Shown here piece by piece: positions 16,954-61,200 of a stretch of 64,000 bases of DNA. The notes under the pieces were generated by a model. That model was not told the origin of the DNA and ran no database searches. It saw nothing but the letters and a program-made list of their open reading frames with translations. The DNA comes from a phage. Numbering within the stretch: position 1 is the stretch's first letter; each line of letters starts with the position of its first letter. A program made the position numbers and the translations under genes. Location of the stretch: the NCBI GenBank assembly GCA_013585095.1, contig GCA_013585095.1_3039.1; one strand, 5' to 3'.

Positions 16954-16966
16954 TAGAATAAATCTA

Positions 16967-17050: not shown

Positions 17051-17133
17051 AAAAAATTTTCACAAAACTGTTTACAAGACTGTTCTTCCATGGTACTATA
17101 CAACTATCAACTAATACGGATTTGGAGAATAAA
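17051..17133 (+). promoter_or_regulatory. early promoter plus conserved leader cassette (copy 1 of 5)
   Basis: AAAATTTTCACAAAACTGTTTACA, 17 bp, TACTAT -10, then leader ACAACTATCAACTA..GGAG..AAAATG; near-identical copies at 36363, 44328, 44840, 48137. Confidence 0.6.
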
Positions 17134-17370
17134 ATGAAAATTGTTATGGGATGCTTAGCAGTTTGTTTAGTTGCATTAGCAGCAGTTCCATTTGTTAGTG
17201 TTGAAAATGATACTCAACCTGTGATTGAATCTAGCACCGTTATTCACACTAATGGTAAAATATCAGTTAAAATTGATGATAATCTTCATGTGAATACAAA
17301 TGGATCTTTAGGTGTGCAAATGGGTAATACCTGCATAAGCACTACTGGAGTAATTACTACTTGCATTTGA
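17134..17370 (+). CDS. small secreted protein (signal peptide)
   Basis: 78 aa from ATG (ORF-track TTG trimmed); N-terminal MKIVMGCLAVCLVALAAVPFVSV hydrophobic signal. Confidence 0.5.
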   Translation: MKIVMGCLAVCLVALAAVPFVSVENDTQPVIESSTVIHTNGKISVKIDDNLHVNTNGSLGVQMGNTCISTTGVITTCI

Positions 17371-18914: not shown

Positions 18915-19753
18915 TTCAATTCGTAATTCCAAGTTATCAGCGTGTCGGGGCAGTTTCTGCCCTTGATATGTTTCCGACTGATTATGAACCCCATATTGTA
19001 GTGCGTGAACATGAAGAAAAAGCTTATTATGATGCCTATGGGTCTAGAGCTAAAATTATAACTATTCCTGATGATGTAAACGGAATTGCCGGTACTCGTA
19101 AAGCAATTACTGATATGTATGCAGGCCAACGAATCTGGATGATTGACGATGATACTACTATTCGTATGAGTTCAATGCGAAAAAGAGATGACCGTCGTTG
19201 TGTGGATAAAGTCAATCAATTGACTCATGAACAGTTCTATGAATTGATTCAATACGTCGAAGATGCCATGGATTGCGGGTATTATCACGGTCATGCTCGC
19301 CTACCAATTTTTAAAATTACTTCATCTTGGGGTAATTATCGTGAAAATTCATATGGATTCACGAATACATGGTATGACCTTGGAAAACTTACGACAGAAC
19401 AAATTGGGTATGGAAAAATTGATTTGTGCGAAGATATGTATGCATTTCTCAATTTAATTAATCAAGGTTATCCGCATTTGGCCTTGTTCAAATATCTAGT
19501 TGTATCTGGAAAAGCACAAGCTCCTGGCGGGTGCAGTTCAATTCGTAGTAATTCTAAACATAATAGAGCGCTTGAGCAAATCAATAGAGAGTTTCCAGAG
19601 CAAGCTCGTTGGAAAACATCGAATATTGAAAAACGAAAATCGTTGGGTGAAGAAGACGAGCCATTAAAGGTTCTTCGCATGTGTGTTTCACGTAAAGAAA
19701 AATCAGAAGCATTTCATAAGTTTAATGCTATTCATCCAATAGCAGTTGATTAA
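18911..19753 (+). CDS. DNA glycosyltransferase with DxD motif (occupies the T4 beta-gt locus; possibly beta-glucosyl-HMC alpha-glucosyltransferase type)
   Basis: 280 aa from ATG overlapping gene 42 stop; RIWMIDDDTT motif typical of GT-A enzymes; length and sequence unlike T4 beta-gt (351 aa) as I recall it. Confidence 0.6.
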   Translation: MIQFVIPSYQRVGAVSALDMFPTDYEPHIVVREHEEKAYYDAYGSRAKIITIPDDVNGIAGTRKAITDMYAGQRIWMIDDDTTIRMSSMRKRDDRRCVDKVNQLTHEQFYELIQYVEDAMDCGYYHGHARLPIFKITSSWGNYRENSYGFTNTWYDLGKLTTEQIGYGKIDLCEDMYAFLNLINQGYPHLALFKYLVVSGKAQAPGGCSSIRSNSKHNRALEQINREFPEQARWKTSNIEKRKSLGEEDEPLKVLRMCVSRKEKSEAFHKFNAIHPIAVD

Positions 19754-21358: not shown

Positions 21359-22786
21359 GTGGTAGAAATTATTCTTTCTCATCTTATATTTGATCAAGCT
21401 TATTTTTCAAAAGTTTGGCCATATATGGATTCAGAATATTTTGAAAGTGGTCCAGCTAAAAATACGTTCAAATTAATTAAATCTCATGTTAATGAGTATC
21501 ATAGCGTTCCATCTATTAATGCGTTAAATGTTGCATTAGAAAATAGTTCATTTACTGAAACAGAATATTCTGGTGTAAAAACACTTATTTCAAAACTGGC
21601 TGATTCTCCAGAAGACCACAGCTGGTTAGTAAAAGAAACAGAAAAATATGTTCAGCAAAGGGCGATGTTTAATGCTACGTCTAAAATAATCGAAATTCAA
21701 ACTAATGCTGAGCTTCCTCCGGAAAAACGAAATAAGAAAATGCCAGATGTAGGTGCTATTCCTGACATCATGCGGCAAGCATTATCTATTTCATTTGATA
21801 GTTACGTTGGTCATGATTGGATGGATGACTATGAAGCACGTTGGCTATCTTATATGAATAAAGCTCGTAAAGTTCCATTTAAACTCAGAATTCTAAACAA
21901 AATTACTAAAGGCGGAGCTGAGACTGGAACACTGAACGTTTTAATGGCTGGCGTTAACGTTGGTAAATCATTAGGATTGTGTTCATTAGCAGCAGATTAT
22001 TTACAGCTCGGACATAATGTTCTTTACATTTCCATGGAAATGGCAGAAGAAGTCTGTGCTAAGCGTATTGACGCTAACATGCTTGATGTTTCTCTTGATG
22101 ACATTGATGATGGGCATATTTCTTACGCTGAATATAAAGGAAAAATGGAAAAATGGCGTGAGAAATCTACCCTTGGTCGTTTAATCGTTAAGCAATATCC
22201 TACTGGTGGAGCAGACGCTAATACATTTCGATCACTTTTAAATGAATTGAAGCTCAAGAAGAATTTTGTTCCAACAATCATTATTGTCGACTATCTAGGT
22301 ATTTGTAAATCTTGCCGCATTAGAGTTTATTCAGAAAATAGTTACACAACTGTTAAAGCTATTGCAGAGGAATTGCGTGCTCTTGCTGTTGAAACCGAAA
22401 CTGTTCTTTGGACTGCAGCACAGGTTGGTAAACAAGCTTGGGATTCTTCTGATGTTAACATGAGCGATATTGCAGAATCTGCTGGTCTTCCAGCAACAGC
22501 TGATTTTATGCTTGCGGTCATTGAAACCGAGGAGCTAGCAGCTGCTGAACAACAACTCATTAAGCAAATCAAATCACGATATGGTGATAAGAACAAATGG
22601 AATAAGTTTTTGATGGGTGTTCAAAAAGGAAATCAAAAATGGGTAGAAATTGAACAAGATTCTACTCCAACCGAAGTGAGTGAAGTAGCAGGTTCACAAC
22701 AGATTCAGGCTGAACAGAATCGCTATCAAAGAAATGAATCCACTCGAGCTCAGTTAGATGCTTTGGCAAATGAATTAAAATTTTAG
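21359..22786 (+). CDS. 41: replicative DNA helicase gp41 (DnaB-like)
   Basis: 475 aa; Walker A GVNVGKS; GTG start after AAGGAG. Confidence 0.93.
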   Translation: MVEIILSHLIFDQAYFSKVWPYMDSEYFESGPAKNTFKLIKSHVNEYHSVPSINALNVALENSSFTETEYSGVKTLISKLADSPEDHSWLVKETEKYVQQRAMFNATSKIIEIQTNAELPPEKRNKKMPDVGAIPDIMRQALSISFDSYVGHDWMDDYEARWLSYMNKARKVPFKLRILNKITKGGAETGTLNVLMAGVNVGKSLGLCSLAADYLQLGHNVLYISMEMAEEVCAKRIDANMLDVSLDDIDDGHISYAEYKGKMEKWREKSTLGRLIVKQYPTGGADANTFRSLLNELKLKKNFVPTIIIVDYLGICKSCRIRVYSENSYTTVKAIAEELRALAVETETVLWTAAQVGKQAWDSSDVNMSDIAESAGLPATADFMLAVIETEELAAAEQQLIKQIKSRYGDKNKWNKFLMGVQKGNQKWVEIEQDSTPTEVSEVAGSQQIQAEQNRYQRNESTRAQLDALANELKF

Positions 22787-22815
22787 TTTACAAACTGACA
22801 AGACTATGGTATAGT
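22786..22815 (+). promoter_or_regulatory. early promoter with stem-loop, starts at the gene 41 stop codon
   Basis: TAG-TTTACA, 17 bp, TATAGT; 8-bp inverted repeat CAAGACTA/TAGTCTTG brackets the -10. Confidence 0.6.
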
Positions 22816-22844
22816 AGTCTTGTTGGTTAAATGAGGAGATTGTT

Positions 22845-23027
22845 ATGGAATTGGTAAAGGTAGTTTTTATGGGGTGGTTTAAGAATGAAAGCATGTTTAC
22901 TAAAGAAATCACAATGATGAAAGATGACGTTCAATGGGCTACTACTCAATATGCTGAAGTTAATAAAGCATTAGTTAAAGCTTTCATTGATGACAAGAAA
23001 GTGTGCGAAGTGGATTGCCGAGGATAA
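22845..23027 (+). CDS. dmd: Dmd-like protein (T4 61.5 position; antitoxin against RnlA/LsoA in T4)
   Basis: 60-aa ORF immediately downstream of gene 41 with GAGGAG SD; assignment by size and position only. Confidence 0.5.
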   Translation: MELVKVVFMGWFKNESMFTKEITMMKDDVQWATTQYAEVNKALVKAFIDDKKVCEVDCRG

Positions 23028-23641: not shown

Positions 23642-24274
23642 ATGATTTATTATATGCACAAAAATCCACCGTTTAAATACGGTAAATTTCCTGATGCACA
23701 ATGTTATAATATAACGCCTGATGAAAATAACCGTGGATATCTTATTGGCACAATTTTTGTAATTGTTAAAGATAACGAAATCGTTGCCTGGGCAGATTTT
23801 AAAGGTACAACATATGATGTTAATCCGGTGCCTTTCACATATTACAATTTAATGGATTTGGCATACGATTATAATTGGTTTAATCATGACACTTTGGCTC
23901 ATATTGAAGGTGTAGGATTTGATATTTCATATTCGGAATACACTTTAAGCCCTATGAGTCGAGCCCATAAAGAACCTGAATATTTTTCATTTAGGAAACG
24001 TGTAAACTTTAAACGCAGCACAGAGTATGTCGGTGGAATCTTTGTTAAAGATAATCGAATTATTCGTATTAATTATCCTTTGAGCGTTAGTCAAAAAGAT
24101 ATTGATGTTGATTTAGATTTCACTGAAAATAATATTAATAATATTGCTTCTGTGTATTTTGGTATCGATCACAAAATTGTAATATGTGGATATGAATTAC
24201 CGTTTGAAGAACAGCCTAAAGTAAAAGTTTCTATTGACGATCAAATTTTTAATGCTTTTATGAATAAAGGTTAA
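23642..24274 (+). CDS. hypothetical protein (T4 61.2 position), internally duplicated
   Basis: 210 aa; two VKDN-containing modules; C-terminal SIDDQIFNAFMNKG shared with next ORF. Confidence 0.55.
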   Translation: MIYYMHKNPPFKYGKFPDAQCYNITPDENNRGYLIGTIFVIVKDNEIVAWADFKGTTYDVNPVPFTYYNLMDLAYDYNWFNHDTLAHIEGVGFDISYSEYTLSPMSRAHKEPEYFSFRKRVNFKRSTEYVGGIFVKDNRIIRINYPLSVSQKDIDVDLDFTENNINNIASVYFGIDHKIVICGYELPFEEQPKVKVSIDDQIFNAFMNKG

Positions 24275-24275
24275 T

Positions 24276-24632
24276 ATGTATAGTTCTGAATTTTCATATT
24301 TAAAAATGGAAAAAATTTCATACGATTTCATAGATGAAAAGGTTTATTACAGTTTCCATGAACCGCGTTTTAATAGTGAGGTTGGGTTTATTGTAGTAAA
24401 AGACAATTTCATTTTAAAGATATATTCGGCATTAAAGGATTTTCACTACGAAAATATTAACCTAAAATTTGATAAAGAAAACGTTCGTAATTGTGCAGTA
24501 ACAATTACAGGAAATAAAGGTACATGTGTTATGCTATCTGATGAAATTAATGATTTACTAAATGATGCAGAAAATATTACTGCGCCATCTATTGATGACC
24601 AAATTTTTAATGCTTTTATGAATAGAGGTTAA
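24276..24632 (+). CDS. hypothetical protein, paralog of upstream ORF (T4 61.1 position)
   Basis: 118 aa; one VKDN module; C-terminal SIDDQIFNAFMNRG. Confidence 0.55.
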   Translation: MYSSEFSYLKMEKISYDFIDEKVYYSFHEPRFNSEVGFIVVKDNFILKIYSALKDFHYENINLKFDKENVRNCAVTITGNKGTCVMLSDEINDLLNDAENITAPSIDDQIFNAFMNRG

Positions 24633-24633
24633 T

Positions 24634-24798
24634 ATGAAAACATATAAAGAATTTATTAAAGAAGATATGGTCGCTGGAGATTCAGGTGGTAATCCTGAAA
24701 ATATCTCTACTGGAACAACGTCAGGCGCTGTAGTAAATAAAGGTCCTGAGCAGATTCCTAAAAAGAAAAAAGAGGAATCTAAAGAAAAAGAAGAGTAA
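24634..24798 (+). CDS. hypothetical small low-complexity protein (54 aa)
   Basis: ATG 2 nt after previous stop; Gly/Lys/Glu-rich; read from sequence. Confidence 0.3.
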   Translation: MKTYKEFIKEDMVAGDSGGNPENISTGTTSGAVVNKGPEQIPKKKKEESKEKEE

Positions 24799-29581: not shown

Positions 29582-29611
29582 GTTTACTTTCCTTTCTAAC
29601 GATGATATGAT
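29582..29611 (+). promoter_or_regulatory. early promoter
   Basis: GTTTACT, 17 bp, TATGAT; then GGAGG SD of next gene. Confidence 0.55.
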
Positions 29612-29637
29612 AGCTTCTGAAGTATACGGAGGCTATC

Positions 29638-30261
29638 ATGATTATTAATCCTGCAGATGTTGAACAGTTATCTATAAAAGCTGAAAGCGTTGATTTTCAA
29701 TATGATATGTATAAAAAGGTCTGTGAAAAATTTACTGATTTTGAGCAGTCTGTTCTTTGGCAATGTATGGAAGCAAAAAAGAATGAAGCTCTTCACAGAC
29801 AGTTGAATAAAATCATTAAAAAGCATTTAACTAAATCGCCTTATCAATTATATCGTGGTATATCAAAATCGACAAAAGAACTTATTAAAGATTTGCAAGT
29901 TGGAGAAGTGTTTTCAACGAACAGGGTAGATTCATTTACTACTAGTTTGCATACAGCGTGTTCTTTTTCTTATGCTGAATATTTCACTGAAACAATACTT
30001 CGTTTAAAAACTGATAAAGCTTTTAATTACTCTGACCATATCAGCGATATTATACTTTCTTCTCCTAATACTGAGTTTAAGTACACGTATGAAGACACTG
30101 ATGGATTAGATTCAGAGCGTACTGATAACTTAATGATGATTGTACATGAACAAGAATGGATGATTCCAATTGGAAAGTATAAAATAACTTCTATTTCAAA
30201 AGAAAAATTACACGATTCATTTGGAACATTTAAAGTTTATGATATTGAGGTAGTTGAATGA
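29638..30261 (+). CDS. modB: ADP-ribosyltransferase (ModB-like)
   Basis: 207 aa; R-S-E triad elements: LYRGI, STS, EQEWMIP. Confidence 0.65.
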   Translation: MIINPADVEQLSIKAESVDFQYDMYKKVCEKFTDFEQSVLWQCMEAKKNEALHRQLNKIIKKHLTKSPYQLYRGISKSTKELIKDLQVGEVFSTNRVDSFTTSLHTACSFSYAEYFTETILRLKTDKAFNYSDHISDIILSSPNTEFKYTYEDTDGLDSERTDNLMMIVHEQEWMIPIGKYKITSISKEKLHDSFGTFKVYDIEVVE

Positions 30262-34782: not shown

Positions 34783-34812
34783 GTTTACTTCCTCGGTTAG
34801 TTGTGGTATTAT
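34783..34812 (+). promoter_or_regulatory. early promoter
   Basis: GTTTACT, 17 bp, TGG-TATTAT. Confidence 0.6.
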
Positions 34813-34839
34813 AACACCATAGCTACTGAGGATAATAAA

Positions 34840-35343
34840 ATGAAAATTTATCGTGTTGAATCATCATTTAGTATTCTTAATTATGAAGATGCTATAACAA
34901 TACGTCGAGATCTTTGTGTTCAAATAACGCCATACAGGAGTATAATGGATTCATGGAGCGAAGAGTGGTTATTACACGTAGGTTATGACAGACCTAATTT
35001 TATGCATCATAGTAATGATAATAAAAGAATTCCTCTTCCGCACGAAGACAAACTATTAGTTAAAAATGCTAATATAGCAATTAATACTAATTTTGAGAAA
35101 GAAGAATATGTAGGCGTAGATCACTATATTCCAGGATGGTTTATAGCTCTTTATCATTTTGCTTTTGCTAGTGAATATGATATGATGAGATGGTTCACAC
35201 GAGAAGAGCGTGAAGAATTAGCTTCTAAAGGATTTTATCTTGCTGTATACGAAGTACCTGAAGATAAAGTTATCATTGGTGGGCATCAAGTAATGTTCCG
35301 TAAATCCCATGCCGAATTAAAAGGCTTTATTACCTTAGATTAA
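34840..35343 (+). CDS. hypothetical protein
   Basis: ORF-track 34801 (TTG) trimmed to ATG after GAGGA; 167 aa. Confidence 0.5.
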   Translation: MKIYRVESSFSILNYEDAITIRRDLCVQITPYRSIMDSWSEEWLLHVGYDRPNFMHHSNDNKRIPLPHEDKLLVKNANIAINTNFEKEEYVGVDHYIPGWFIALYHFAFASEYDMMRWFTREEREELASKGFYLAVYEVPEDKVIIGGHQVMFRKSHAELKGFITLD

Positions 35344-35353: not shown

Positions 35354-35791
35354 ATGATTAAAAATAATGCTGTTTATCAATTGAAAAAATTTGATGAAAT
35401 TAAGAATTTTTCGGTACTGTCTAATACAGCTCATAATAAGTTTTGTGAACTTCTTGGTTTAACTGGCGGATATCCTTTTACTGTTATTAGTGTTAATAGC
35501 GGAATTCTTATCGGTATGATGTATATTGAAATTAGAAACTATTATGGAATGGTATCACCGCTTATTATTTATGAAAAAGATTTTAGTCTATTGACAGAAA
35601 TTGAAAAACCTGAAGATCCAACTGATCTACTGTGTAAGGCAGTTTATATTCGTCGTCCATTCGCGAATCCTGTGGGTGGATGGGTGACTGATCAGTGGAT
35701 TGAAGATGGTGTTGAACTTCTGAACGTAGTTCATGCTGGAGAGTACTCTGTAGTTCCTCGCAGCGCAGTGATTAATGTTCGTGTAAGCTAG
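35354..35791 (+). CDS. hypothetical protein, paralogous C-terminus to next gene
   Basis: 145 aa; C-terminal TDQWIEDGVELLNVVHAGEYSVVP. Confidence 0.5.
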   Translation: MIKNNAVYQLKKFDEIKNFSVLSNTAHNKFCELLGLTGGYPFTVISVNSGILIGMMYIEIRNYYGMVSPLIIYEKDFSLLTEIEKPEDPTDLLCKAVYIRRPFANPVGGWVTDQWIEDGVELLNVVHAGEYSVVPRSAVINVRVS

Positions 35792-35820
35792 TTTACAAAC
35801 TCTTGGGACCAGAGTATAAT
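35791..35820 (+). promoter_or_regulatory. early promoter with stem-loop, starts at upstream stop codon
   Basis: TAG-TTTACA, 17 bp, TATAAT; inverted repeat GGACCA/TGGTCC around the -10. Confidence 0.6.
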
Positions 35821-35864
35821 GGTCCTGCGGAGTATAAAATCTTTTTAACAAGTGAGAGATAACT

Positions 35865-36356: not shown

Positions 36357-36362
36357 AGTTTA

Positions 36363-36453
36363 AAATTTTTTCATAAAACTATATACATCAGTAGTTGATT
36401 ATGGTACTATATCAATATCAACTACTGATACAGAAAACAACTTGGAGAATAAA
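36363..36453 (+). promoter_or_regulatory. promoter-leader cassette copy 2 (degenerate -35)
   Basis: TTTTTTCATAAAAC..ATATAC, 17 bp, TACTAT, leader ATCAATATCAACTACTGATACAGAA..GGAG..AAAATG. Confidence 0.5.
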
Positions 36454-36723
36454 ATGGAAAATTTAATTATCATCGAGCAATCTTTCAATGATTATGGTAT
36501 GGCTTACGGTTATCGTGCGATAATGGAAGATTCTCGTGGATGTGTTATCGATATTGCTGAATGTAAAGATTTACTGCAGCTTTTGAAGATTGTTCGCAAA
36601 AATTGGGATTGTGAAAACATTAAAGCTCGTGTTGTAACGGAAGAAGAAACTGTTTTTCATGATGTAAAATTCGCTAAAGGTGCTGCTACTCTTCTGAAAC
36701 GCATCGCTCCACTGTTCAATTAA
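36454..36723 (+). CDS. hypothetical protein
   Basis: ORF-track 36442 (TTG) trimmed to ATG; 89 aa. Confidence 0.5.
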   Translation: MENLIIIEQSFNDYGMAYGYRAIMEDSRGCVIDIAECKDLLQLLKIVRKNWDCENIKARVVTEEETVFHDVKFAKGAATLLKRIAPLFN

Positions 36724-37930: not shown

Positions 37931-38196
37931 AAATTATGAAATATATTAATCGTTCTATCGCAGCATTAGTATTAGCAGTATCTTTAGTAGGATGTACTGA
38001 TGCTGATAATGCAACTAAAATTTTATCATCAAGTGGTTTTACGAATATTGAAATCACTGGATATAACTGGTTCGGTTGCTCTGAAAATGATTTCCAACAT
38101 ACTGGATTTCGTGCTATTGGACCTACCGGGCAGAAAGTAGAAGGAACAGTATGTTCTGGGCTGTTCTTTAAGGATTCAACTATTCGTTTTAAATAA
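37927..38196 (+). CDS. putative lipoprotein
   Basis: 89 aa; N-terminal signal with LVGC lipobox. Confidence 0.55.
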   Translation: MKIMKYINRSIAALVLAVSLVGCTDADNATKILSSSGFTNIEITGYNWFGCSENDFQHTGFRAIGPTGQKVEGTVCSGLFFKDSTIRFK

Positions 38197-38213
38197 AAGG
38201 CCTTCGGGCCTTT
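38197..38213 (+). terminator. terminator-like hairpin
   Basis: AAGGCC-TTCG-GGCCTT then TAGCTTTAT; near-copy of the element at 7275. Confidence 0.55.
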
Positions 38214-38265
38214 AGCTTTATGATTACTGGAGTATAATATTCCCGAAACCAAACGAGGATAAGTG

Positions 38266-42540: not shown

Positions 42541-43479
42541 ATGTACAATATTAAATGCCTGACCAAAAACGAACAAGCTGAAATTGTTAAATTGTATTCA
42601 AGCGGTAATTACACCCAACAGGAATTGGCTGATTGGCAAGGTGTATCGGTTGACACAATTCGTCGTGTTTTGAAAAATGCTGAAGAAGCTAAACGCTCTA
42701 AAGTTACTATTAGCGGTGACATTACGGTTAAAGTTAATAGCGATACAGCTATTGCTCCAGTTACTAAATCTGACATTATTTGGAATGCATCTAAAAAATT
42801 CATTTCAATTACTGTTGACGGTGTAACTTATAACGCAACTCCTAATACTCATTCAAACTTCCAGGAAATTCTTAATCTGCTTGTAGCAGATAAGTTGGAA
42901 GAAGCGGTACAAAAAATTAATGTTCGTCGCGCTGTTGAAAAATATATTTCCGGCGATGTTCGAATTGAAGGCGGAAGCTTGTTCTATCAAAATATCGAAT
43001 TACGGTCTGGTTTAGTTGATCGTATTCTCGATTCGATGGAAAAAGGTGAAAACTTTGAATTTTATTTTCCGTTCTTGGAAAATCTGCTGGAAAACCCAAG
43101 CCAGAAAGCGGTATCTCGACTCTTTGATTTCTTGGTAGCAAACGATATTGAAATTACAGAAGATGGTTACTTCTATGCTTGGAAAGTAGTTCGTGACAAC
43201 TACTTTGACTGTCACTCAAACACCTTTGATAACAGTCCTGGTAAAGTAGTTAAAATGCCGCGTACTCGTGTGAATGACGATGATACACAAACTTGTTCTC
43301 GTGGTCTGCATGTGTGTTCTAAATCTTATATTCGTCACTTTGGCAGTTCAACCAGCCGAGTTGTAAAAGTTAAAGTACATCCACGTGATGTAGTATCAAT
43401 TCCGATTGATTACAACGATGCTAAAATGCGTACCTGCCAATACGAAGTAGTTGAAGACGTTACTGAACAATTTAAATAA
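42541..43479 (+). CDS. rIIB: rIIB protein
   Basis: 312 aa, immediately downstream of rIIA. Confidence 0.88.
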   Translation: MYNIKCLTKNEQAEIVKLYSSGNYTQQELADWQGVSVDTIRRVLKNAEEAKRSKVTISGDITVKVNSDTAIAPVTKSDIIWNASKKFISITVDGVTYNATPNTHSNFQEILNLLVADKLEEAVQKINVRRAVEKYISGDVRIEGGSLFYQNIELRSGLVDRILDSMEKGENFEFYFPFLENLLENPSQKAVSRLFDFLVANDIEITEDGYFYAWKVVRDNYFDCHSNTFDNSPGKVVKMPRTRVNDDDTQTCSRGLHVCSKSYIRHFGSSTSRVVKVKVHPRDVVSIPIDYNDAKMRTCQYEVVEDVTEQFK

Positions 43480-43493
43480 GGGCTTCGGCCCTT
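43478..43493 (+). other. GC hairpin with UUCG loop (RNA stability element or weak terminator)
   Basis: AAGGGC-TTCG-GCCCTT, weak U tract. Confidence 0.45.
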
Positions 43494-43511
43494 ATCATAT
43501 TAAGGAAAATT

Positions 43512-43706
43512 ATGTTAGGTTATCAAGCACGAGTAAAAGAAGAATACGATCAATTAATGCTCAAAATTAATGCACTGAGCAAATTTTTAGAAAGCACAAA
43601 GTTTCTAACGGTTAGTGCAGTTGAGCAAGAACTGCTGCTTTCACAGTTCATCTCAATGAAATCTTATGCTGAGTGTCTAGAGAAAAGAATCGCACAATTC
43701 AAATAA
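43512..43706 (+). CDS. hypothetical helical protein
   Basis: 64-aa ORF with AGGAAAA SD. Confidence 0.5.
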   Translation: MLGYQARVKEEYDQLMLKINALSKFLESTKFLTVSAVEQELLLSQFISMKSYAECLEKRIAQFK

Positions 43707-43709
43707 AAT

Positions 43710-43732
43710 AAGGGCTTCGGCCCTTTTGTTTT
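43710..43732 (+). terminator. rho-independent terminator
   Basis: GGGC-TTCG-GCCC then TTTTGTTTT. Confidence 0.8.
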
Positions 43733-43769
43733 AAGAGAAATTATGATTCCGACATAAAGGAAAGTTTAA

Positions 43770-44327
43770 ATGCAGAAAACGAATCCGGGTTTGCAGAGAC
43801 TATTTCAGATTCCGACATTTACTCTATCGAACAGCGATTTAACCAATGAAATGAAGGTCAAAATTGCTGATACAGCAAGATACTCTTTAAAACAAAACCC
43901 GAACCAGGATAAGGCAGAAGTTATCGAAAGATGTCGTATCGCTGTGTATGCTGAGTATGTTGTAGCAGATTGGTTAAGCGGGTATGTTAATAAAGGTCAA
44001 GAAGATGTCGATGATCCGTACACATATGCATGGGATGTTTTAGCGCATCCAAAATATTGCGGGCTTCGTGTAGAAGTCAAAACACATCAAACTGACTCGC
44101 GTTGGATTTCGGTAACAACGGGATGCAGCGGAGAGTATCCATATGGTTCTGGAATAAATTTAGGGCCCATTCTAAATCATCAAGTCGCTGACTGTATAAT
44201 TATATTCAACACTAAAGAAATTCATCCAGGTGTCATCCAGTACACTCCGAAGTTCATCGGTGACAGAGAAGACCTTCGTAAGGTTGTAAGAAAAAGCAAC
44301 TACAACGGATGGTATCTTTCCATTTAA
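43770..44327 (+). CDS. denB: endonuclease IV DenB
   Basis: 185 aa, downstream of rIIB as in T4. Confidence 0.8.
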   Translation: MQKTNPGLQRLFQIPTFTLSNSDLTNEMKVKIADTARYSLKQNPNQDKAEVIERCRIAVYAEYVVADWLSGYVNKGQEDVDDPYTYAWDVLAHPKYCGLRVEVKTHQTDSRWISVTTGCSGEYPYGSGINLGPILNHQVADCIIIFNTKEIHPGVIQYTPKFIGDREDLRKVVRKSNYNGWYLSI

Positions 44328-44403
44328 AAATTTTTTCACAAAACGGTTTACATACCACAAGGACCGTGGTACTATTACCCTATCAACTACGGAGGAGCGG
44401 AAA
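44328..44403 (+). promoter_or_regulatory. promoter-leader cassette copy 3
   Basis: TTTTTTCACAAAACGGTTTACA, 17 bp, TACTAT, leader TACCCTATCAACTACGGAGGAG..AAAATG. Confidence 0.6.
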
Positions 44404-44667
44404 ATGAAATTTAAATTTTATTACGCTAAACATAAAATAACTGATGAGTTTGTGTCAGTTGAATATTCTAGCGATGATGAAGGTATGATTTATACTCGCT
44501 TAGGATTATCGCATTGGGAGTCTGATACGCCTTATTTTTCAACTCCCGAAGAAATTACACGCTTAGTTAATGGTCATATGAATGACCACTGGAATGTAAT
44601 TCTTTCAGATAGTCTTAAAGCGGCTATTAATAGTAATGAAATGAAAATCGCTGAGATTGAGTTATGA
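44404..44667 (+). CDS. hypothetical protein
   Basis: 87-aa ORF. Confidence 0.5.
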   Translation: MKFKFYYAKHKITDEFVSVEYSSDDEGMIYTRLGLSHWESDTPYFSTPEEITRLVNGHMNDHWNVILSDSLKAAINSNEMKIAEIEL

Positions 44668-44839
44668 GTTCACTATGGTGGTGTTTCGTTTGGTTAATTA
44701 GTATTCCATTAATTTGTTTAACATTTACTTTTGTAATGAGATTATTATGAAAATTTTGAATTCTGTACTTATTGCTTGCGCGTGGTGGGTTGCACAGGTT
44801 TCAGCGGTAGTAGTTGGTATTCACATTTATTACGAATAT

Positions 44840-44910
44840 TTTTAAAAAAGTTGTTTACAAGACTGTTCTTCCGTGGTACTATTACTCTATCAACTACGGA
44901 GGAACAGAAA
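44840..44910 (+). promoter_or_regulatory. promoter-leader cassette copy 4
   Basis: AAAAAAGTTGTTTACAAGACTGTTCTTCCGTGG-TACTAT, leader TACTCTATCAACTACGGAGGAAC..AAAATG. Confidence 0.6.
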
Positions 44911-45024
44911 ATGAAAAAGATTATTAAAGCTATATGGAATGTAGTTATAATATTAATAGTTTTGAGTATATTCCCAATCGTTTTAATGATTGATGTATTA
45001 AACGCTTACTTTGGATTTATGTGA
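44911..45024 (+). CDS. hypothetical small membrane protein (37 aa)
   Basis: ORF-track 44776 trimmed to ATG after GGAGGAACAGAAA; one hydrophobic helix. Confidence 0.4.
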   Translation: MKKIIKAIWNVVIILIVLSIFPIVLMIDVLNAYFGFM

Positions 45025-45031
45025 GGAAAAT

Positions 45032-45229
45032 ATGAAGCGTAAACGCAGTGCTTTTACATTTATTGAATGGTTTTTCGATAATATTTTTCCGGCTTTATTC
45101 ATTTTCATGCTGATTTTTGCCTTAGGTTCAGTTGTAGTTGGAATCTATTTGATGGCGGTAGTCGGAATGGATATTCATCAAAATGGTTTAAAATCCGTAG
45201 TTGAAACAATTTGGAATGGTGTAAAATAA
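45032..45229 (+). CDS. hypothetical membrane protein
   Basis: ORF-track 45011 (TTG) trimmed to ATG after GAGGAAAAT; 65 aa, two hydrophobic segments. Confidence 0.45.
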   Translation: MKRKRSAFTFIEWFFDNIFPALFIFMLIFALGSVVVGIYLMAVVGMDIHQNGLKSVVETIWNGVK

Positions 45230-45336
45230 TGAATTTACTAAACATTTGGTTTTATATTCTTATGTTTTACATTGGCGCAAATTTTCCATATTGGATGGGA
45301 TGGTCAACAACTGCATTTGGATTTTATACTCCTTGA
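45229..45336 (+). CDS. hypothetical tiny hydrophobic protein (35 aa)
   Basis: ATG overlaps previous stop (TAATG); read from sequence. Confidence 0.3.
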   Translation: MNLLNIWFYILMFYIGANFPYWMGWSTTAFGFYTP

Positions 45337-45344
45337 GGTGAATT

Positions 45345-45560
45345 ATGAAAATCTTTAAAGATGTAAAAGTTGGTGAAATTTTCTGTTTAGATAACGGTGA
45401 TCAGTTAATTCGTATTTCACCTCTTAAGAGCACTAGCGAGAAACCGACAGTTAATGCTACTTTAGCAAATAATAGTAATGAACGTTTCTGTATTGAAAAT
45501 GATACTGAAACTTACACCGTAGAAGAATTCTGGGAATTGAGCGTCGACTGCGACGAGTAA
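45345..45560 (+). CDS. hypothetical protein
   Basis: 71-aa ORF with GAGGTGAATT SD. Confidence 0.5.
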   Translation: MKIFKDVKVGEIFCLDNGDQLIRISPLKSTSEKPTVNATLANNSNERFCIENDTETYTVEEFWELSVDCDE

Positions 45561-45620
45561 TTTAATGGCCGTGTGTATTCATGCGGCCTTGGAGTAGAAA
45601 ATAATTTAGAGGAAATTAAT

Positions 45621-46079
45621 ATGAAATATATGACTGTTACTGATCTGAACAACGCAGGTGCTACTGTTATTGGTACAATCAAGGGTGGTGAATGGTTTTT
45701 GGGAACTCCGCATAAAGATATTTTATCTAAACCTGGATTTTACTTTTTAGTAAGTAAATTAGATGGTCGTCTATTTAGTAATCCATGCGTGTCTGCACGA
45801 TTTTATGTAGGTAATCAGCGTTCTAAGCAAGGATTCAGTGCAGTTCTAAGTCATATTCGTCAACGTCGGTCTCAGCTTGCACGTACTATTGCAAATAACA
45901 ATGTTCCATACACAGTATTTTATCTGCCTGCTTCTAAGATGAAACCTCTGACGACAGGATTTGGTAAAGGTCAGTTAGCTTTGGCGTTTACTCGTAATCA
46001 TCATTCTGAGTATCAAACACTTGAAGAAATGAACCGTATGTTGGCTGATAACTTTAAATTCGTTTTGCAGGCATATTAA
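45621..46079 (+). CDS. ndd: nucleoid disruption protein Ndd
   Basis: ORF-track 45573 trimmed to ATG after GAGGAAATTAAT; 152 aa; position between denB and stp/ac. Confidence 0.85.
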
Positions 46080-46159
46080 TGAGTAATTTCCACAACGAAC
46101 ACGTGATGCAGTTCTATCGTAACAATCTTAAAACCAAAGGCGTCTTCGGACGCCAGTGA
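46079..46159 (+). CDS. stp: Stp peptide (26 aa; activator of the host PrrC anticodon nuclease in T4)
   Basis: 26-codon ORF, ATG overlapping ndd stop (TAATG), sequence [26 protein letters not shown]; read from sequence. Confidence 0.65.
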
Positions 46160-46166
46160 GGAAAAT

Positions 46167-46322
46167 ATGAAATTTGTTCACGGTATAGCCTTTTTCTGTT
46201 GGTTCTTTTTATGCATCGGAACAGTAATAACTGGAGAAACTTCAGTATTTTTGCAAGCATCAGCTCAGGGCGTATTAGCGATTTTATCATTATTCGCGTA
46301 CATTGGTTCTAAAAATAGTTGA
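46167..46322 (+). CDS. small membrane protein, paralog of Ac (51 aa)
   Basis: GAGGAAAAT SD; shares FxCW..SVF.QA.AQG pattern with next ORF; read from sequence. Confidence 0.4.
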   Translation: MKFVHGIAFFCWFFLCIGTVITGETSVFLQASAQGVLAILSLFAYIGSKNS

Positions 46323-46332
46323 GGAGAATATT

Positions 46333-46491
46333 ATGAATATCGCAAAATTATTAGGAGTTATTTCATTTATTTGTTGGATAGTAGCATGTGTTTTAACTAT
46401 CTGTATTGATGCTAGCAGTGTGTTTTCGCAAGCTTTAGCTCAGGGTATGTGTGCATATTTAACATTTGTGTTGTTATCTACTAATGATTAA
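46333..46491 (+). CDS. ac: Ac-like small membrane protein (acriflavine sensitivity locus position)
   Basis: ORF-track 46303 (TTG) trimmed to ATG after GAGGAGAATATT; 52 aa hydrophobic. Confidence 0.5.
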   Translation: MNIAKLLGVISFICWIVACVLTICIDASSVFSQALAQGMCAYLTFVLLSTND

Positions 46492-46624
46492 GAAAATCTT
46501 GGGCTATTCATTAGCCCTTGCTATTTTATTAATAGCACTATATTATGGAGTAATGTTTGGATTAATTCAAGTCGTGCTTTTCATTTCTGATGTTATTATG
46601 GCACTACATTCACTAGTATGGTAA
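46484..46624 (+). CDS. hypothetical small membrane protein (46 aa)
   Basis: overlaps ac 3' end; hydrophobic; read from sequence. Confidence 0.3.
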   Translation: MIKKILGYSLALAILLIALYYGVMFGLIQVVLFISDVIMALHSLVW

Positions 46625-46628
46625 ATTT

Positions 46629-47957
46629 ATGCAACTGAATAATCGCGATTTAAAAAGTATCATTGATAATGAAGCATTGGCTTATGCTATGTACACGGTT
46701 GAAAATCGTGCTATTCCAAATATGATTGATGGATTTAAGCCAGTTCAACGATTTGTTATTGCTCGAGCTCTTGATTTGGCACGAGGAAATAAAGATAAGT
46801 TTCACAAACTCGCTTCTATTGCAGGTGGTGTAGCGGACCTTGGATATCACCATGGTGAAAACTCTGCACAAGATGCGGGGGCTTTGATGGCTAACACTTG
46901 GAATAATAACTTTCCTTTATTAGATGGTCAAGGAAACTTCGGTTCTCGTACTGTCCAAAAGGCAGCAGCTAGTCGTTATATTTTTGCTCGTGTAAGTAAA
47001 AATTTCTATAACGTATATAAAGATACTGAATATGCTCCAGTACATCAAGATAAAGAACACATTCCGCCTGCTTTCTATTTGCCTATTATTCCTACTGTTC
47101 TTCTTAATGGCGTTTCCGGTATTGCAACTGGTTATGCAACTTACATTCTTCCTCATAGTGTTTCTTCTGTTAAGAAAGCTGTACTGCAAGCTCTTCAAGG
47201 AAAGAAAGTAACTAAACCGAAGGTAGAATTCCCAGAATTTCGTGGTGAAGTCGTTGAAATTGATGGGCAATATGAAATTCGTGGAACATATAAGTTTACT
47301 TCACGAACTCAAATGCATATCACTGAGATTCCGTATAAGTATGATCGTGAAACTTATGTGAGTAAAATCTTAGACCCACTTGAAGATAAAGGCTTCATTA
47401 CATGGGATGATGCTTGTGGTGAGCATGGTTTTGGATTCAAAGTTAAATTCCGTAAAGAATATTCTTTGAGCGATAATGAAGAAGAACGCCATGCAAAAAT
47501 TATGAAAGACTTCGGGTTGATTGAGCGTCGTTCTCAGAATATTACCGTCATTAATGAGAAAGGAAAACTGCAAGTTTACGATAACGTAGTTGATTTAATT
47601 AAAGACTTTGTTGAAGTTCGTAAAACTTATGTCCAAAAACGAATTGATAACAAAATCAAAGAAACTGAGTCAGCTTTTCGTTTAGCCTTTGCCAAGGCAC
47701 ATTTCATTAAGAAAGTAATTTCAGGTGAAATTGTTGTACAAGGTAAAACTCGCAAAGAACTGACCGAAGAACTTTCTAAAATTGATATGTATTCTTCTTA
47801 TGTTGATAAACTAGTTGGAATGAATATTTTTCATATGGCTTCCGACGAAGCAAAGAAACTTGCTGAAGAAGCTAAAGCTAAAAAAGAAGAAAACGAATAT
47901 TGGAAAACTACTGATGTAGTTACAGAATACACCAAAGATTTAGAGGAAATCAAATGA
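46629..47957 (+). CDS. 52: type II DNA topoisomerase medium subunit gp52
   Basis: 442 aa; GyrA/ParC-like N-terminal region. Confidence 0.9.
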   Translation: MQLNNRDLKSIIDNEALAYAMYTVENRAIPNMIDGFKPVQRFVIARALDLARGNKDKFHKLASIAGGVADLGYHHGENSAQDAGALMANTWNNNFPLLDGQGNFGSRTVQKAAASRYIFARVSKNFYNVYKDTEYAPVHQDKEHIPPAFYLPIIPTVLLNGVSGIATGYATYILPHSVSSVKKAVLQALQGKKVTKPKVEFPEFRGEVVEIDGQYEIRGTYKFTSRTQMHITEIPYKYDRETYVSKILDPLEDKGFITWDDACGEHGFGFKVKFRKEYSLSDNEEERHAKIMKDFGLIERRSQNITVINEKGKLQVYDNVVDLIKDFVEVRKTYVQKRIDNKIKETESAFRLAFAKAHFIKKVISGEIVVQGKTRKELTEELSKIDMYSSYVDKLVGMNIFHMASDEAKKLAEEAKAKKEENEYWKTTDVVTEYTKDLEEIK

Positions 47958-48103
47958 GTCCATTCATAGGTATTACAAGCGCTGCATTAGTATCCGGTAG
48001 CATTTTACTGGCGGGTTTAGGTGTTGTTCCAGCCGTAGCAGGAGGTCTTCTTGCGTTCGGAATTCAACGTGTTATCATGACAGTTATCACAGTCATGCAG
48101 TAA
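47954..48103 (+). CDS. hypothetical small membrane protein (49 aa)
   Basis: ATG overlaps gene 52 stop; Gly/Ala/Val-rich helix; followed by strong terminator. Confidence 0.35.
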   Translation: MSPFIGITSAALVSGSILLAGLGVVPAVAGGLLAFGIQRVIMTVITVMQ

Positions 48104-48108
48104 TTTTA

Positions 48109-48134
48109 GGGAGAGCCTCGGCTCTCCCTTTTTT
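48109..48134 (+). terminator. rho-independent terminator
   Basis: GGGAGAGC-CTCG-GCTCTCCC then TTTTTT. Confidence 0.85.
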
Positions 48135-48136
48135 AT

Positions 48137-48229
48137 TTTAAAATTTTTTCACAAAACGGTTTACAACCAAAGCATTCTATGGTACTATACAACTATCAAC
48201 TACTGATACAGAATTACGGAGATTAGAAA
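48137..48229 (+). promoter_or_regulatory. promoter-leader cassette copy 5 (motA promoter)
   Basis: TTTTTTCACAAAACGGTTTACA, 17 bp, TACTAT, leader ACAACTATCAACTACTGATACAGAA..GGAG..AAAATG. Confidence 0.6.
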
Positions 48230-48865
48230 ATGTCTAAAGTAACTTACATCATTAAAGCTTCTAACGATGTTCTGAATGAAAAAACTGCTGCGATTTTAAT
48301 TACCATTGCTAAGAAAGATTTCATTACAGCTGCAGAAGTTCGTGAGGTGCATCCAGATTTAGGTAACGCAGTAGTTAATAGTAATATTGGGGTATTGATT
48401 AAAAAAGGCCTGGTGGAGAAATCTGGTGATGGATTAATCATTACTGGTGAAGCTCAGGATATTATTTCAAATGCAGCAACTTTATACGCACAGGAAAACG
48501 CTCCTGAACTGCTGAAAAAACGAGCAACTCGTAAAGCTCGCGAAATTACTTCTGATATGGAAGAAGATAAAGACTTCATGTTAAAACTTTTGGATGAAAA
48601 TGGATTTGTTCTTAAAAAGGTTGAAACTTATCGTAGTAACTATCTCGCTATTTTAGAAAAACGCACTCACGGAATTCGTAATTTTGAAATTAACAACAAT
48701 GGAAATATGCGAATTTTTGGATACAAAATGATGGAACATCATATTCAGAAATTTACTGACATCGGAATGTCATGTAAAATCGCTAAAAACGGTAATGTGT
48801 ATCTTGACATTAAACGCTCGGCAGAAAACATTGAAGCAGTAATCACTGTAGCATCTGAACTGTGA
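48230..48865 (+). CDS. motA: middle-transcription activator MotA
   Basis: 211 aa; T4 synteny after gene 52. Confidence 0.88.
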   Translation: MSKVTYIIKASNDVLNEKTAAILITIAKKDFITAAEVREVHPDLGNAVVNSNIGVLIKKGLVEKSGDGLIITGEAQDIISNAATLYAQENAPELLKKRATRKAREITSDMEEDKDFMLKLLDENGFVLKKVETYRSNYLAILEKRTHGIRNFEINNNGNMRIFGYKMMEHHIQKFTDIGMSCKIAKNGNVYLDIKRSAENIEAVITVASEL

Positions 48866-48875
48866 GGAATAAATA

Positions 48876-49205
48876 ATGAACAAGTTAGAAATTGTCAATG
48901 AACTTCGTCGTTGTGCAGAACCTACTCAAGAGGGTTGGGATATTTGGTACCATGGAGCTTATCTTGGAACTATTGTAAAGATTAAGACTGGTAAATACAT
49001 GATTATTCGTGAAAGTAAAGATGCTCCAGTAGGTATTCGCAATAATTTTATGGCAGCGATAAGTTCCTTTACAGATGCAGCTTACGAAATTTACCTTGCC
49101 GATTATAAAGAATTCCAGGAATCTCAACCGGTTATTCGTTCAATTGGTGTTAACAAAGCTCAACAGAAAACTTTGTGGCAGCGTATTAAAGGATGGTTTA
49201 AATGA
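48876..49205 (+). CDS. hypothetical protein
   Basis: 109-aa ORF with GAGGAATAAATA SD. Confidence 0.5.
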
Positions 49206-49663
49206 AAACTTTTAAAGAACGTTTAGCTCTGTTAGATAAAGCTTTATCTCGTGAGACTCCGGAAAGTCTGGCTGCTAAATTAGCTTCTTATGGTGGTGAA
49301 TATACAGAACAAAATGTTTTAGATGAAGTTCCTGAAATCTGTTGGCAGACTGCATATTGGGATGAAAACCAAAAGTATCAACGACGAATTGTCTGTGCAG
49401 CCAACCGTTTTAAATTAAAAGATGGACGAACTCTTATTATTCCAGGTGCTCGTCATTATTCTAAAGATATGGCAGAAGTTTTAGATGTAGTTAAACCTCA
49501 ATTAGTTACTCAACAAGTTTGTGATGATGACCAAGGGTTTATTGACCAATATAGTAATTATTGGACTCGCGAAGAAGCAATGATTATTGCAACTTACGCT
49601 GGACAAGTACGTATTGAACGTGGTGGTAGTGAAAAAGAACTTTACTCTGAGGACCTTTACTAA
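49202..49663 (+). CDS. hypothetical protein
   Basis: 153-aa ORF. Confidence 0.5.
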
Positions 49664-58219: not shown

Positions 58220-61200
58220 TTATTCAACCCATTCAAATTTAACAGTTTTATTCACTGGGTCAGGAATAATGCGAACATTACCAATTCGCAAGAAATCGCG
58301 AATAGTAAGATTCCCCATTGTAGCATTATCAGATGGTAAAGCACCGATATCAGATGGTTGAGGAGGGTTACCTCCATCAAATACCTGAACAAAACTTGAC
58401 CAAGAGTTTTTGGTTTTCTGCCATGTACGTGTCCAGCGAGTGGTACGCGCTTCTGGTGTCGTTGGATAAGTAATCCAATCTTGGTAAAGCGAATCAAGTG
58501 TGTTACCAAATTGTGTCAGTGTACCAGGAGATTTAACTTCTTCGCCACGTTCTAAGTACGGAAGTCCAGTCACTTCATTAGTTTTTTCAACCATTTTAAA
58601 ATAACCCGGGAACTGGTTATAAGTAGCTGAATCATTAATATCAATTGACCAGAATCCTACAGTATCAGATGTTGGTGCGCGAGTGTATAAATCAGCAGTT
58701 TTAGTACCCTGAGAACGAATTCTCGAGTTAACGGTTAAACCACCAGAATTTATAGTAGCGCCTTTGGCAATGATTAAGCTTTCACCGATCGTTACTTGTC
58801 CAGATGCATTATTAATAGCTAAAGGGCGTAATCCATTAAATCCACCGGTCTGATCACCCGATGCAGTAAGCATAAAATAGGTGTTAGCAGCATCATTGCG
58901 AATAAAGAATCCATAGTCGCCATTTATTGCTCTGAAAGCATTTGTTGATTTACTGATGAATTCGCCATTAGCAGTAACTGAACTACCAAATGTTGCAACG
59001 CCGTTAGCGTTCAAAGAACCTGAAGCGTTAACATTTATCGGCATCACAGTACCATTAATGCTAAACGTTATATTCCCAGCTTTATTACGTTGAGAATAAA
59101 AGTGATTAGACGTTTCATCACCAACTTCAAATACAGTAGAACGTGTTGTATCTGAACCGCCACCAAACTGATTTCCCCAAACTCTGATAGTCATCGTCTG
59201 CGCTGGGTTAGTTCCAGTTTGAGGTCCTTTCTCAAAAATCAGACGAGTTGCCGTTCCAGTATTAGAAATAGTTAATGTACTATTTGCCGAAACTGAACCA
59301 CCAAACGTAGCAGTACTAGATGATACAAGAGGGGCACTCAGATTCGTTTGTTGGGTTAAGGTTAGTGAACCATTAACCGTCTGTGCAATATCCCTACGAA
59401 TGAACTGAGATGAATCTAGGCCATCTAATAAATTTGCGTCAGCAGCTTTTGCTTTTAACGGCAGATAATTTGCTAATACACGGTTTAATTCATATGGTGA
59501 TACCGCATAGCTATTTTTCTCATACAGTTCTAAATCTTGGGTAGAACCGACTGTATCATTACCAACGAATGTAATTGAACCAGATGAAGTTTTAACAAAA
59601 CCTCTTATTGCAGTAGTAGCTGCCCAAGTAGGTTCACTCTGCACAATCCATTTTAAATTTTTTGGAGATACAGCAGTATTTGCTGATGTTCCAGCTACGG
59701 TTTCAGCTTGAGTTGCAACTTTAATAACACCTTCTTGCGATTCGGTAGATTTAGTACCTAAAAGCTTTTTAGGAGTTATTAAAACATTATCTAATGTTCC
59801 TGCAGCAGCTTCAACTTGTGTAGCTACACGAAGTGTACCACGTTGCGTCTCATTTGCTTCAAGAATATTAAGGGTATAATGGTCCCAGAGAGTTCCTGAT
59901 TCAACTAATCCAGATAGAGCAACAACAGAAGTACGATCAGTACTATTAAATCTGGTTTTAATTTTTAATGGTGTAGAGATACGAGTATCGTCGACGCCTG
60001 CGTCGAATTCAACTTGTGTAGCAATTTCAGCTATACCACTTAAACTTTCAGTTGCTCTACGGTCATTTAAAGTTTTAGGAGTGACTGCACGAGTATAATC
60101 AGTTCCTGTATTAACTTCACTTTGCGTAGCAATTTCAATTAAACCAATTCTTGCATCAGTTGATGTCTTTTTATGTAACGTTTCTGGCGTTACAACCGCA
60201 TTTGCCCATCCTTCTTGGCTTTGTCCAGCAATTACTTCACTTTCAACTGCTAAAATTACTGCACCTTGCTGTGTTGGAGTAGCTTTATACTGATCCAAAG
60301 CTTTAGGTGAAACAACTAAATTATTAGTGTTTTTATTATAAACATTCGTACCATTTAATTCACGGCTAGAAGCTGGAGTAGCTCCTGCAGTAGATACAAA
60401 AGTTACAATACCAGATAATGATTCAGAACCTTGACGAGCTTGAAGCTTTTTAGGAGTAATGATTGTAGTATCATCAGTACCTGCATTAGTTTCTTGCTGC
60501 GTAGCAATTTCTGCGACACCTCTGCGAGTTTCTGTAGCAGTTCTTTCATTCAGCTTTTTAGGAGTGATGATAATATCATCAGCAAAAGAGAATGTGGTGT
60601 TCTGATTCACTTGAGCAGTAGTTGCTATTCTTGCGATACCTCTACGAGTTTCTGTAGCAGTACGATTAGCTAACGTTTCTGGAGTAATTGCTAATTCTTT
60701 TTGTGGAGAATTTTCTAAATCGACATTAGCTTGAGCTTGTGTAGCTAAAGCAATTACGCCTAATCTTGCTCTAGTAGAATCATTTAAAGAATCTACTCTT
60801 TCGACAGTTGGAACGTTTTGCTGTACAACCCAGTATTTTCCATCAGAATCTTCTATATAAGCAAGCTCTAAAACTGGAACATAATTAGTTTCACCATTAA
60901 AAACTAATTCTTGAACTGTAACCCACTCAGCTTCAGGCGGATATTCTGAGCGTTTTGGGAATTGCAGCAATTGAACTGAAGAAGCAATTTTATCTTCACC
61001 AGCAGCTTTGATTTTAACTGTTTGTCCTTTTCTCATGTAATTCATGGAAATTTTAACAGTATCACCAACAGAGATATCAGTAGGAAGCTGAAGCTCAATT
61101 GTCTGAGTCATTCCATTATTCGCTCCAAATACCATAACTTCTTCATTTGGACGAATGTTTGAATTAGTCGTTATAATACGTAAACGTGCTTTACTGTCCC

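Follow-up and report, generated by a model that had tools for sequence, protein, structure and literature searches.

Five copies of a probable early-promoter cassette, with short leader and translation start, in a Tequatrovirus genome

Five repeats in the window, the whole 64,000-nucleotide stretch of phage DNA analysed here, are very probably T-even early promoters (Pe), each joined to a short leader with its translation start, that serve as crossover points of the PeSL type. The earlier note on this DNA had recognised their promoter-leader nature, although it missed their identity as classic T4 Pe and PeSL cassettes. What follows relies on the literature for the function of sigma-70 and UP, for cleavage by RegB and for recombination at PeSL; the anatomy, family size, leader folding, hairpins and junctions come from our own analysis, in which we infer where transcription starts in this phage and what the +1 to +9 block does.

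Anatomy of the five cassettes

The window belongs to the genus Tequatrovirus. Positions 44300-44920 are 99.7% identical to phage AR1, and hundreds of Tequatrovirus genomes match 43500-49500 at 94-97.5%. The early (minus) strand of T4 corresponds to the + strand of the window, and the gene order at the locus (rIIB, denB.1, denB, small ORFs, ndd, ac, 52, motA.1, motA) is the same in the AR1 and T4 annotation. All five copies listed in the earlier note were confirmed in the window sequence, each directly 5′ of a different ORF (78-aa, 89-aa, 87-aa, 37-aa and motA), and T4 orthologues exist for every one of them. Their +1 positions were placed 7 nt after the -10, on the basis of spacing and T4 coordinates. 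The cassettes, their downstream genes and the terminators beside them are as follows.

16966-16983, + strand: G+C-rich hairpin with a T-run, terminator-like, about 87 nt 5′ of the P17070 -35
17047-17136, + strand: cassette P17070; UP-like tract 17047-17068, GTTTACA (-35) at 17070, TGG at 17091, TACTAT (-10) at 17094-17099; predicted +1 at 17106 (ATCAACTAA), RegB/S1-type site and Shine-Dalgarno GGAGAATAAAA at 17124-17134, ATG at 17134
17134-17370, + strand: 78-aa ORF behind P17070, with a signal-peptide-like N-terminus, phrog_4189
36358-36456, + strand: cassette P36381; UP-like tract 36358-36379, degenerate -35 ATATACA at 36381, TACTAT (-10) at 36405-36410; predicted +1 at 36417, GGAGAATAAAA at 36444-36454, ATG at 36454
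36454-36723, + strand: 89-aa ORF behind P36381, phrog_3720
44323-44406, + strand: cassette P44346; UP-like tract 44323-44344, GTTTACA (-35) at 44346, -10 at 44370-44375; predicted +1 at 44382, GGAGGAGCGGA at 44391, ATG at 44404
44404-44667, + strand: 87-aa ORF behind P44346, phrog_2390, AR1_278
44830-44913, + strand: cassette P44853; A/T-rich upstream tract 44830-44851, GTTTACA (-35) at 44853, -10 at 44877-44882; predicted +1 at 44889, GGAGGAACAGA at 44898, ATG at 44911
44911 (ATG), + strand: 37-aa hydrophobic, membrane-like ORF behind P44853, which corresponds to the T4 ndd.4-side promoter
48108-48129, + strand: intrinsic terminator, a 9-bp hairpin (6 G-C pairs) with a T-run, after motA.1 and directly 5′ of the motA cassette
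48136-48232, + strand: cassette P48159, the motA early promoter; UP-like tract 48136-48157, -35 at 48159, -10 at 48183-48188; predicted +1 at 48195, GGAGATTAGAA at 48218, motA ATG at 48230

P17070 is the orthologue of the T4 promoter whose start lies at map unit 27,044, and the UP-like region of P44346 overlaps the denB stop codon. The four small ORFs behind the cassettes matched PHROG families of unknown function.

Mean column identity across the aligned copies was 74%, with invariant columns in the upstream T-run and AAA, in T.TACA (-35), in TGGTACTAT, in TATCAACTA and in the terminal (G)GA...AAAATG. An unsupervised repeat search recovered the same five copies, which formed its two highest-ranking direct-repeat families (D1 and D2). 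The core TGGTACTAT-N5-TATCAACTA (TGGTACTATNNNNNTATCAACTA, at most one mismatch) was found at exactly these five sites in the window, all on the + strand, and in none of 100 dinucleotide-preserving shuffles, by which chance resemblance in AT-rich DNA was ruled out. Moreover, the block CTATCAACTAC, at -2 to +9, was identical in all five copies, so that conservation beyond the -10 far exceeds chance, as had been proposed. The copies form the tightest subfamily in the window, though not a closed set of five: approximately 16 early-promoter-like sites lie on the + strand, with weaker relatives of the subfamily at 23289 (ATAAACTACTGAGGAG), 34783 and 50624.

The spacing described in the earlier note, GTTTACA-17 bp-TACTAT, was reproduced in all five copies as a 17-bp spacer before TGGTACTAT (TGG plus TACTAT, an extended -10), but the exact GTTTACA in only four. 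The fifth, P36381, reads ATATACA at the -35, and with so poor a hexamer it may have little or no promoter activity. At about -40 to -57 lies an A/T-rich tract, AAAATTTTTTCACAAAAC in four copies and ATATTTTTAAAAAAGT in P44853, which we take to resemble the E. coli UP consensus of Estrem et al. T4 early promoters rank among the strongest sigma-70 promoters known, and conservation around the T4 start site was reportedly described by Liebig and Rüger (1989). A middle (MotA-dependent) promoter was ruled out by inspection, there being no TGCTT box at -30 and GTTTACA at -35.

The placement of +1 agreed with T4: the same rule applied there gave 27,044, 41,225 and 150,727, which are published Pe map units (PMC6024815). 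Additionally, the -35 and -10 of the motA promoter are annotated at the homologous site in T4 record Z48569; the annotation of the T4 GenBank record holds no promoter features. By this anatomy, the UP element, GTTTACA, 17-bp spacer and TGGTACTAT would recruit unmodified host sigma-70 polymerase immediately upon infection, making each cassette a putative self-contained early expression unit. Transcription would begin at the A of CTATCAAC, 7 nt past the -10, and a start at that base would place the invariant block in the promoter consensus, as its start-site and initial-transcribed portion.

Leaders, Shine-Dalgarno sites and hairpins

The leaders are G-poor and end in a GGAG Shine-Dalgarno in an A-rich context, with GGAG predicted to be unpaired in all five when RNA starts at the cassette's own promoter. 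Folded from +1 to 30 nt past the ATG, the leaders gave 0 to -7 kcal/mol and no common fold; z-scores were -0.5, 0.3, 1.2 and 0.2 for four of them, and -2.6 for the fifth, the latter due to a hairpin in the coding region. No Rfam family reached threshold in a search of the whole window. A structured leader RNA or known RNA family was thus rejected, and the shared 5′-UTR element that had been suggested holds as a conserved promoter-plus-leader cassette but not as a discrete RNA element, given unstructured leaders, no Rfam match and a -2 to +9 block that includes the start site and hence straddles it rather than lying wholly within the transcript.

RegB together with ribosomal protein S1 cuts early T4 messages within GGAG (PMC1702504, PMC3014915). 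The target consensus published for RegB/S1 reads GGAGRAYARAA; in T4 its optimum is GGAGAAUAAAA, and RegB cleaves the Shine-Dalgarno of motA (Durand et al. 2006, PMC1702504; Uzan and Miller 2010, PMC3014915). The 11-nt optimum occurs unaltered in P17070 and P36381, motA matches it at 10 of 11 positions, and P44346 (GGAGGAGCGGA) and P44853 (GGAGGAACAGA) fit the 3′ part of the consensus poorly. Judged from these matches, the conserved 3′ end of the cassette is a Shine-Dalgarno combined with a putative RegB/S1 site of the published type. Its GGAG and A-rich 3′ context would be a RegB/S1 target, so that the messages would be shut off after a few minutes, and an open leader would suit both ribosomes and RegB because RNA structure protects against RegB. 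The fusion of early promoters to RegB-sensitive ribosome-binding sites would explain the burst-and-shut-off expression of early genes.

RNA that enters from upstream is predicted to behave differently at two copies, where the -35/-10 region is complementary to the leader.

36387-36429, + strand: P36381 hairpin; 20-nt arms, 85% complementary, -20.2 kcal/mol, z = -4.2
44863-44907, + strand: P44853 hairpin, 15 bp; -22.7 kcal/mol, z = -3.9, 0/200 shuffles

The P36381 hairpin straddles the -10 and the start site and, since its left arm is 5′ of +1, could form only in read-through RNA. In P44853, the left arm is the -35/-10 spacer and the right arm, ACUACGGAGGAACAG, includes the Shine-Dalgarno. Folding RNA from the -35 onward placed the -10 and +1 in the loop in both. 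This complementarity between spacer and leader would let read-through RNA fold, hiding the Shine-Dalgarno in P44853; RNA begun at the cassette's own promoter would stay open, and read-through RNA would have its Shine-Dalgarno hidden or be attenuated. The scan of early promoters in the window, for which shuffles preserved mononucleotide composition only, also returned strong hairpins at four promoters outside the subfamily (22786-22850, 29582-29650, 34783-34850 and 35791-35850), at -19 to -24 kcal/mol and z of -4.2 to -6.3 by these mononucleotide shuffles. In all four the -10 is in or near the loop and the stem runs across the predicted start, and at 29582 and 34783 the Shine-Dalgarno lies within the 3′ arm.

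A different hairpin, with a UUCG tetraloop (GGGCTTCGGCCC or GGCCTTCGGGCC), occurs at six intergenic sites (3627-3667, 7270-7300, 11980-12010, 38191-38221, 43468-43508 and 43700-43740), which make up repeat families D4 and D5, overlapping at 43700-43740. These are presumably the classic, very stable intercistronic hairpins or terminators of T4.

Module exchange at the cassettes

Alignment of the window to T4 gave 21 breakpoints, three of which fall within 60 nt downstream of a Pe start, all three in the subfamily. The binomial probability of this is 0.004 when all early promoters are counted and 0.00013 when only the subfamily is, under a null that ignores the bias of indels towards intergenic sites. 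At junction 17147/17381, the 78-aa ORF separates the cassette from imm.1 in the window, while the T4 cassette abuts imm.1, and ATGAAAAT is common to both start codons. At junction 36463/36662, T4 has a deletion within the 89-aa ORF at AAAATT microhomology, leaving an 11-codon stub. At junction 44393/44635, T4 lacks the 87-aa ORF save its last eight codons (MKIAEIEL), and the T4 leader there is of the imm.1 type; the sequence is consistent with an exchange that used the -10/start core at one end and AATGAAATGAAAATCGCT at the other. The first two of these T4 junctions involve 6-8 nt of microhomology (ATGAAAAT and AAAATT) at or inside the first codons, and are not cassette-to-cassette.

The region of the 87-aa ORF is intact in 398 of 501 matching records; with about 80% of records keeping it, T4 represents the derived state. 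The 78-, 89- and 87-aa ORFs (PHROGs 4189, 3720 and 2390, respectively) are present in many relatives and are deleted or truncated in T4.

Exchanges were also seen among other strains. The promoter half downstream of denB is followed by varied modules, namely an extra 68-aa ORF with an nrdC.10-type leader in BYEP01 and bov10K1, and ACAACT with a short leader in ECO07P5. A search of IMG/VR for loci by their MotA returned 13 loci, among which the motA promoter itself had been swapped: three contigs (L140-L142) encode a MotA 100% identical to that of the window behind a Dhakavirus-type motA cassette, ATCAAATAAATGAACTGAAACGGAGATTAAAATG. The swapped cassette lies at about 296-400, against 48125-48229 in the window, and homology resumes at the Shine-Dalgarno. 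With three of the five cassettes at indel junctions relative to T4, and swaps of leader plus ORF in other strains, the suggestion that the repeats are recombination substrates was borne out. Many copies share 20-60 nt of near-identical sequence that would serve as crossover points, at which modules of leader plus gene would be inserted, deleted or swapped. The repetition of the cassette would in this way reshuffle small accessory genes among related phages.

Other repeated sequences were noted alongside the cassettes. In T4 (AF158101), the early promoter pairs 146839/55348, 136300/123057 and 57954/20576 share upstream halves or spacer plus leader and then diverge abruptly, so mosaic paralogy is general among T4 early promoters rather than specific to the subfamily. 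In the window, a 49-nt direct repeat (24230-24278 and 24588-24636, 94% identical), comprising a gene end, a ribosome-binding site and an ATG, flanks approximately 310 bp that are absent from T4, where 19128-19176 aligns with both copies; this is a repeat-bounded insertion or deletion of a small ORF, unrelated to the promoter cassettes. Four degenerate repeats of about 68 nt, 62-74% identical, are located in the long tail-fibre gene region (59712-60688, - strand coding) and presumably reflect repeated structural units of the fibre protein.

The start-site block and comparison with known systems

The subfamily extends well beyond the window. In T4, the same filter gave 35 early-promoter candidates, of which 15 start with ATC, 11 with ATCAA and eight with ATCAACTA. 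In total, 8-9 T4 copies have ATCAACTA at +1, plus weaker relatives, and the T4 subfamily includes the promoters of motA, the ndd.4 side, the ndd.6 side, imm.1, e.8, trna.4, nrdC.8, nrdC.10 and denV. A sensitive BLAST search with the motA cassette gave matches at 3921 places across 545 phage records, which amounts to about seven in each genome; nearly all are Tequatrovirus. A loose pattern scan of IMG/VR (TACTAT-N5-TATCAACTA) returned mostly chance matches in unrelated contigs, together with a few T4-like genomes.

Outside the genus, the motA promoter orthologues of Moonvirus, Karamvirus, Mosigvirus and Dhakavirus read TA...T-N6-ATCAA(A)..., with spacers and discriminators that differ, and their leaders are G-poor and then reach sites of the GGAGAAAYAAA type. 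Moreover, in the Mosigvirus ST0 (50 kb), ATC was at +1 in nine of 12 early promoters (binomial P ~5e-14 against composition), several of which read ATCAACTAC at the start. Judged by these comparisons, the ATCAA start motif predates the genus Tequatrovirus. Because ATCAA recurs at early promoters of other Tevenvirinae genera, the conservation past the -10 probably represents a functional consensus rather than chance. The 17-bp spacers, in contrast, are unrelated in most pairs of the five copies; that they are so while -2 to +9 is identical speaks for the block having been selected, not only inherited. The block looks like a DNA-level extension of the T-even promoter and initial-transcribed consensus, and the conservation past the -10 is probably functional, as a promoter extension plus the Shine-Dalgarno/RegB site rather than as an RNA motif.

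Several other readings of this conservation were weighed. The identity past the -10 could have no function of its own and be the footprint of recent duplication and gene conversion, that is, of concerted evolution. The copies are indeed mosaic, in that P17070 and P44853 have the same spacer, AGACTGTTCTTCC, with differing leaders, and P36381 and P48159 share CTACTGATACAGAA with differing spacers; likewise, pairs of T4 promoters have whole upstream halves in common (e.g., those starting at 146839 and 55348), and strains share the upstream half of the denB promoter but differ in the leader behind it. We nevertheless consider this rather unlikely as an explanation, in view of a block that is uniform across cassettes with mostly unrelated spacers, the enrichment of ATC(AA) at the non-orthologous promoters of ST0, its retention at the orthologous motA promoters in four other genera despite divergence of their spacers and discriminators, and the demonstrated function of the GGAG-A-rich end. 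A cis-regulatory RNA fold in all five mRNAs, be it a riboswitch, a thermosensor or a protein-binding hairpin, would account for a conserved 5′ UTR of 20-45 nt ahead of unrelated genes, yet it is scarcely credible given the weak and dissimilar leader folds, the empty Rfam search of the window, a conserved AUCAACUAC that is unpaired or weakly paired in the predicted folds, and strong hairpins that occur in just two of the five copies and need sequence 5′ of +1.

Alternatively, the block may bind a phage or host factor, on DNA or on nascent RNA, with early shut-off or the Alt-modified polymerase as candidate roles. Reviews call the mechanism of early-promoter shut-off unknown and state that the -35, TGn and -10 do not account for the stimulation by Alt; in addition, -2 to +9 is the sole conserved part of the cassette lacking an assigned function while being kept across genera. 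Against such a factor, which we regard as very improbable, many bona fide T4 early promoters are without the block, and in a mutational analysis of P8.1 no single position was responsible for the Alt effect (PMC2988021). Similarly, we give a slim chance to the block CTATCAAC(TAC) being a discrete element with its own reader, e.g., a cis-target of early shut-off or of the Alt-modified polymerase. If so, the start block would be more than an optimised initial-transcribed sequence kept uniform by recombination; ATCAAC(TAC) at +1 to +9 is the one part of the cassette that has no assigned role, and its core ATCAA is kept across genera.

The preferred reading, early promoters fused to a leader and translation start, was compared with four published systems. 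T4 Pe have been described as 'uber' UP/-35/TGn/-10 promoters with additional consensus regions (Hinton 2010, PMC2988021), and GTTTAC has been placed at -36 to -31 of early promoters (Nolan et al. 2006, PMC1524935). The cassettes share this GTTTAC placement, the A-rich UP, TGn with TA(C/T)(T/A)AT at the -10 and an A at +1, and they lie on the early strand 5′ of early genes. They differ in that the published logos examined end at approximately the start site, whereas conservation here was traced to +9 and to the Shine-Dalgarno, and in the degenerate -35 of a single copy, P36381; nothing essential sets them apart. Regarding RegB/S1 sites, the likeness lies in a single-stranded GGAG within early Shine-Dalgarno sequences followed by A-rich sequence, with motA (GGAGAUUAGAA) being itself a published substrate; the GGAGGAACAGA of P44853 is similar to the nrdC.8 site, which was reported to be cut only moderately.

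The hairpins recall those of T4 e, soc, 49 and I-TevI (PMC3014915), in which a hairpin sequesters the Shine-Dalgarno in transcripts from upstream promoters, and a promoter within the 5′ arm or loop yields translatable RNA that lacks the 5′ arm, an arrangement seen in P44853 and also at 29582 and 34783. The embedded promoter is late in the published cases but early here, and the predicted logic would consequently be to translate only from the gene's own early transcript.

The closest resemblance is to the PeSL (Arbiol et al. 2010, PMC2839356; Comeau et al. 2014, PMC4122927), which likewise combine an A/T-rich upstream region, early promoter, Shine-Dalgarno and ATG, are associated with a stem-loop, and are likewise concentrated in variable regions beside indels and ORF swaps. 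In the PeSL model, flanking cassettes recombine to release mini-circles; between the cassettes at 44328 and 44840, this would be a 507-bp unit. The T4/PST pair examined by Comeau et al. (2014, PMC4122927) has an ndd.4/.5 exchange in the same denB-ndd interval. In RB49, PeSL crossovers were located by mapping in the interval from the -10 to the ATG, with which the denB-promoter swaps reported here agree, and the RB49 stem-loops are located between the -35 and -10 or overlap the -10 (PMC2839356, PMC4122927). In our cassettes, by comparison, the stem-loop is internal in two copies (P36381 and P44853) and replaced by an upstream terminator in two others (P48159 and P17070), while a search at P44346 found neither a stem-loop nor an upstream terminator; the stem-loop half of the PeSL definition thus applies to the cassettes unevenly. 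A further difference is that two of the three T4 junctions involve start-codon microhomology rather than by cassette-to-cassette homology. Because Pe, RegB/S1 sites, promoter-embedded hairpins and PeSL shuffling between T4 and PST have all been published, the cassettes are already known, and the earlier note correctly rediscovered a textbook system. By-products of the analysis are three precisely resolved T4 junctions and clear swaps of leader-plus-gene modules behind one promoter.
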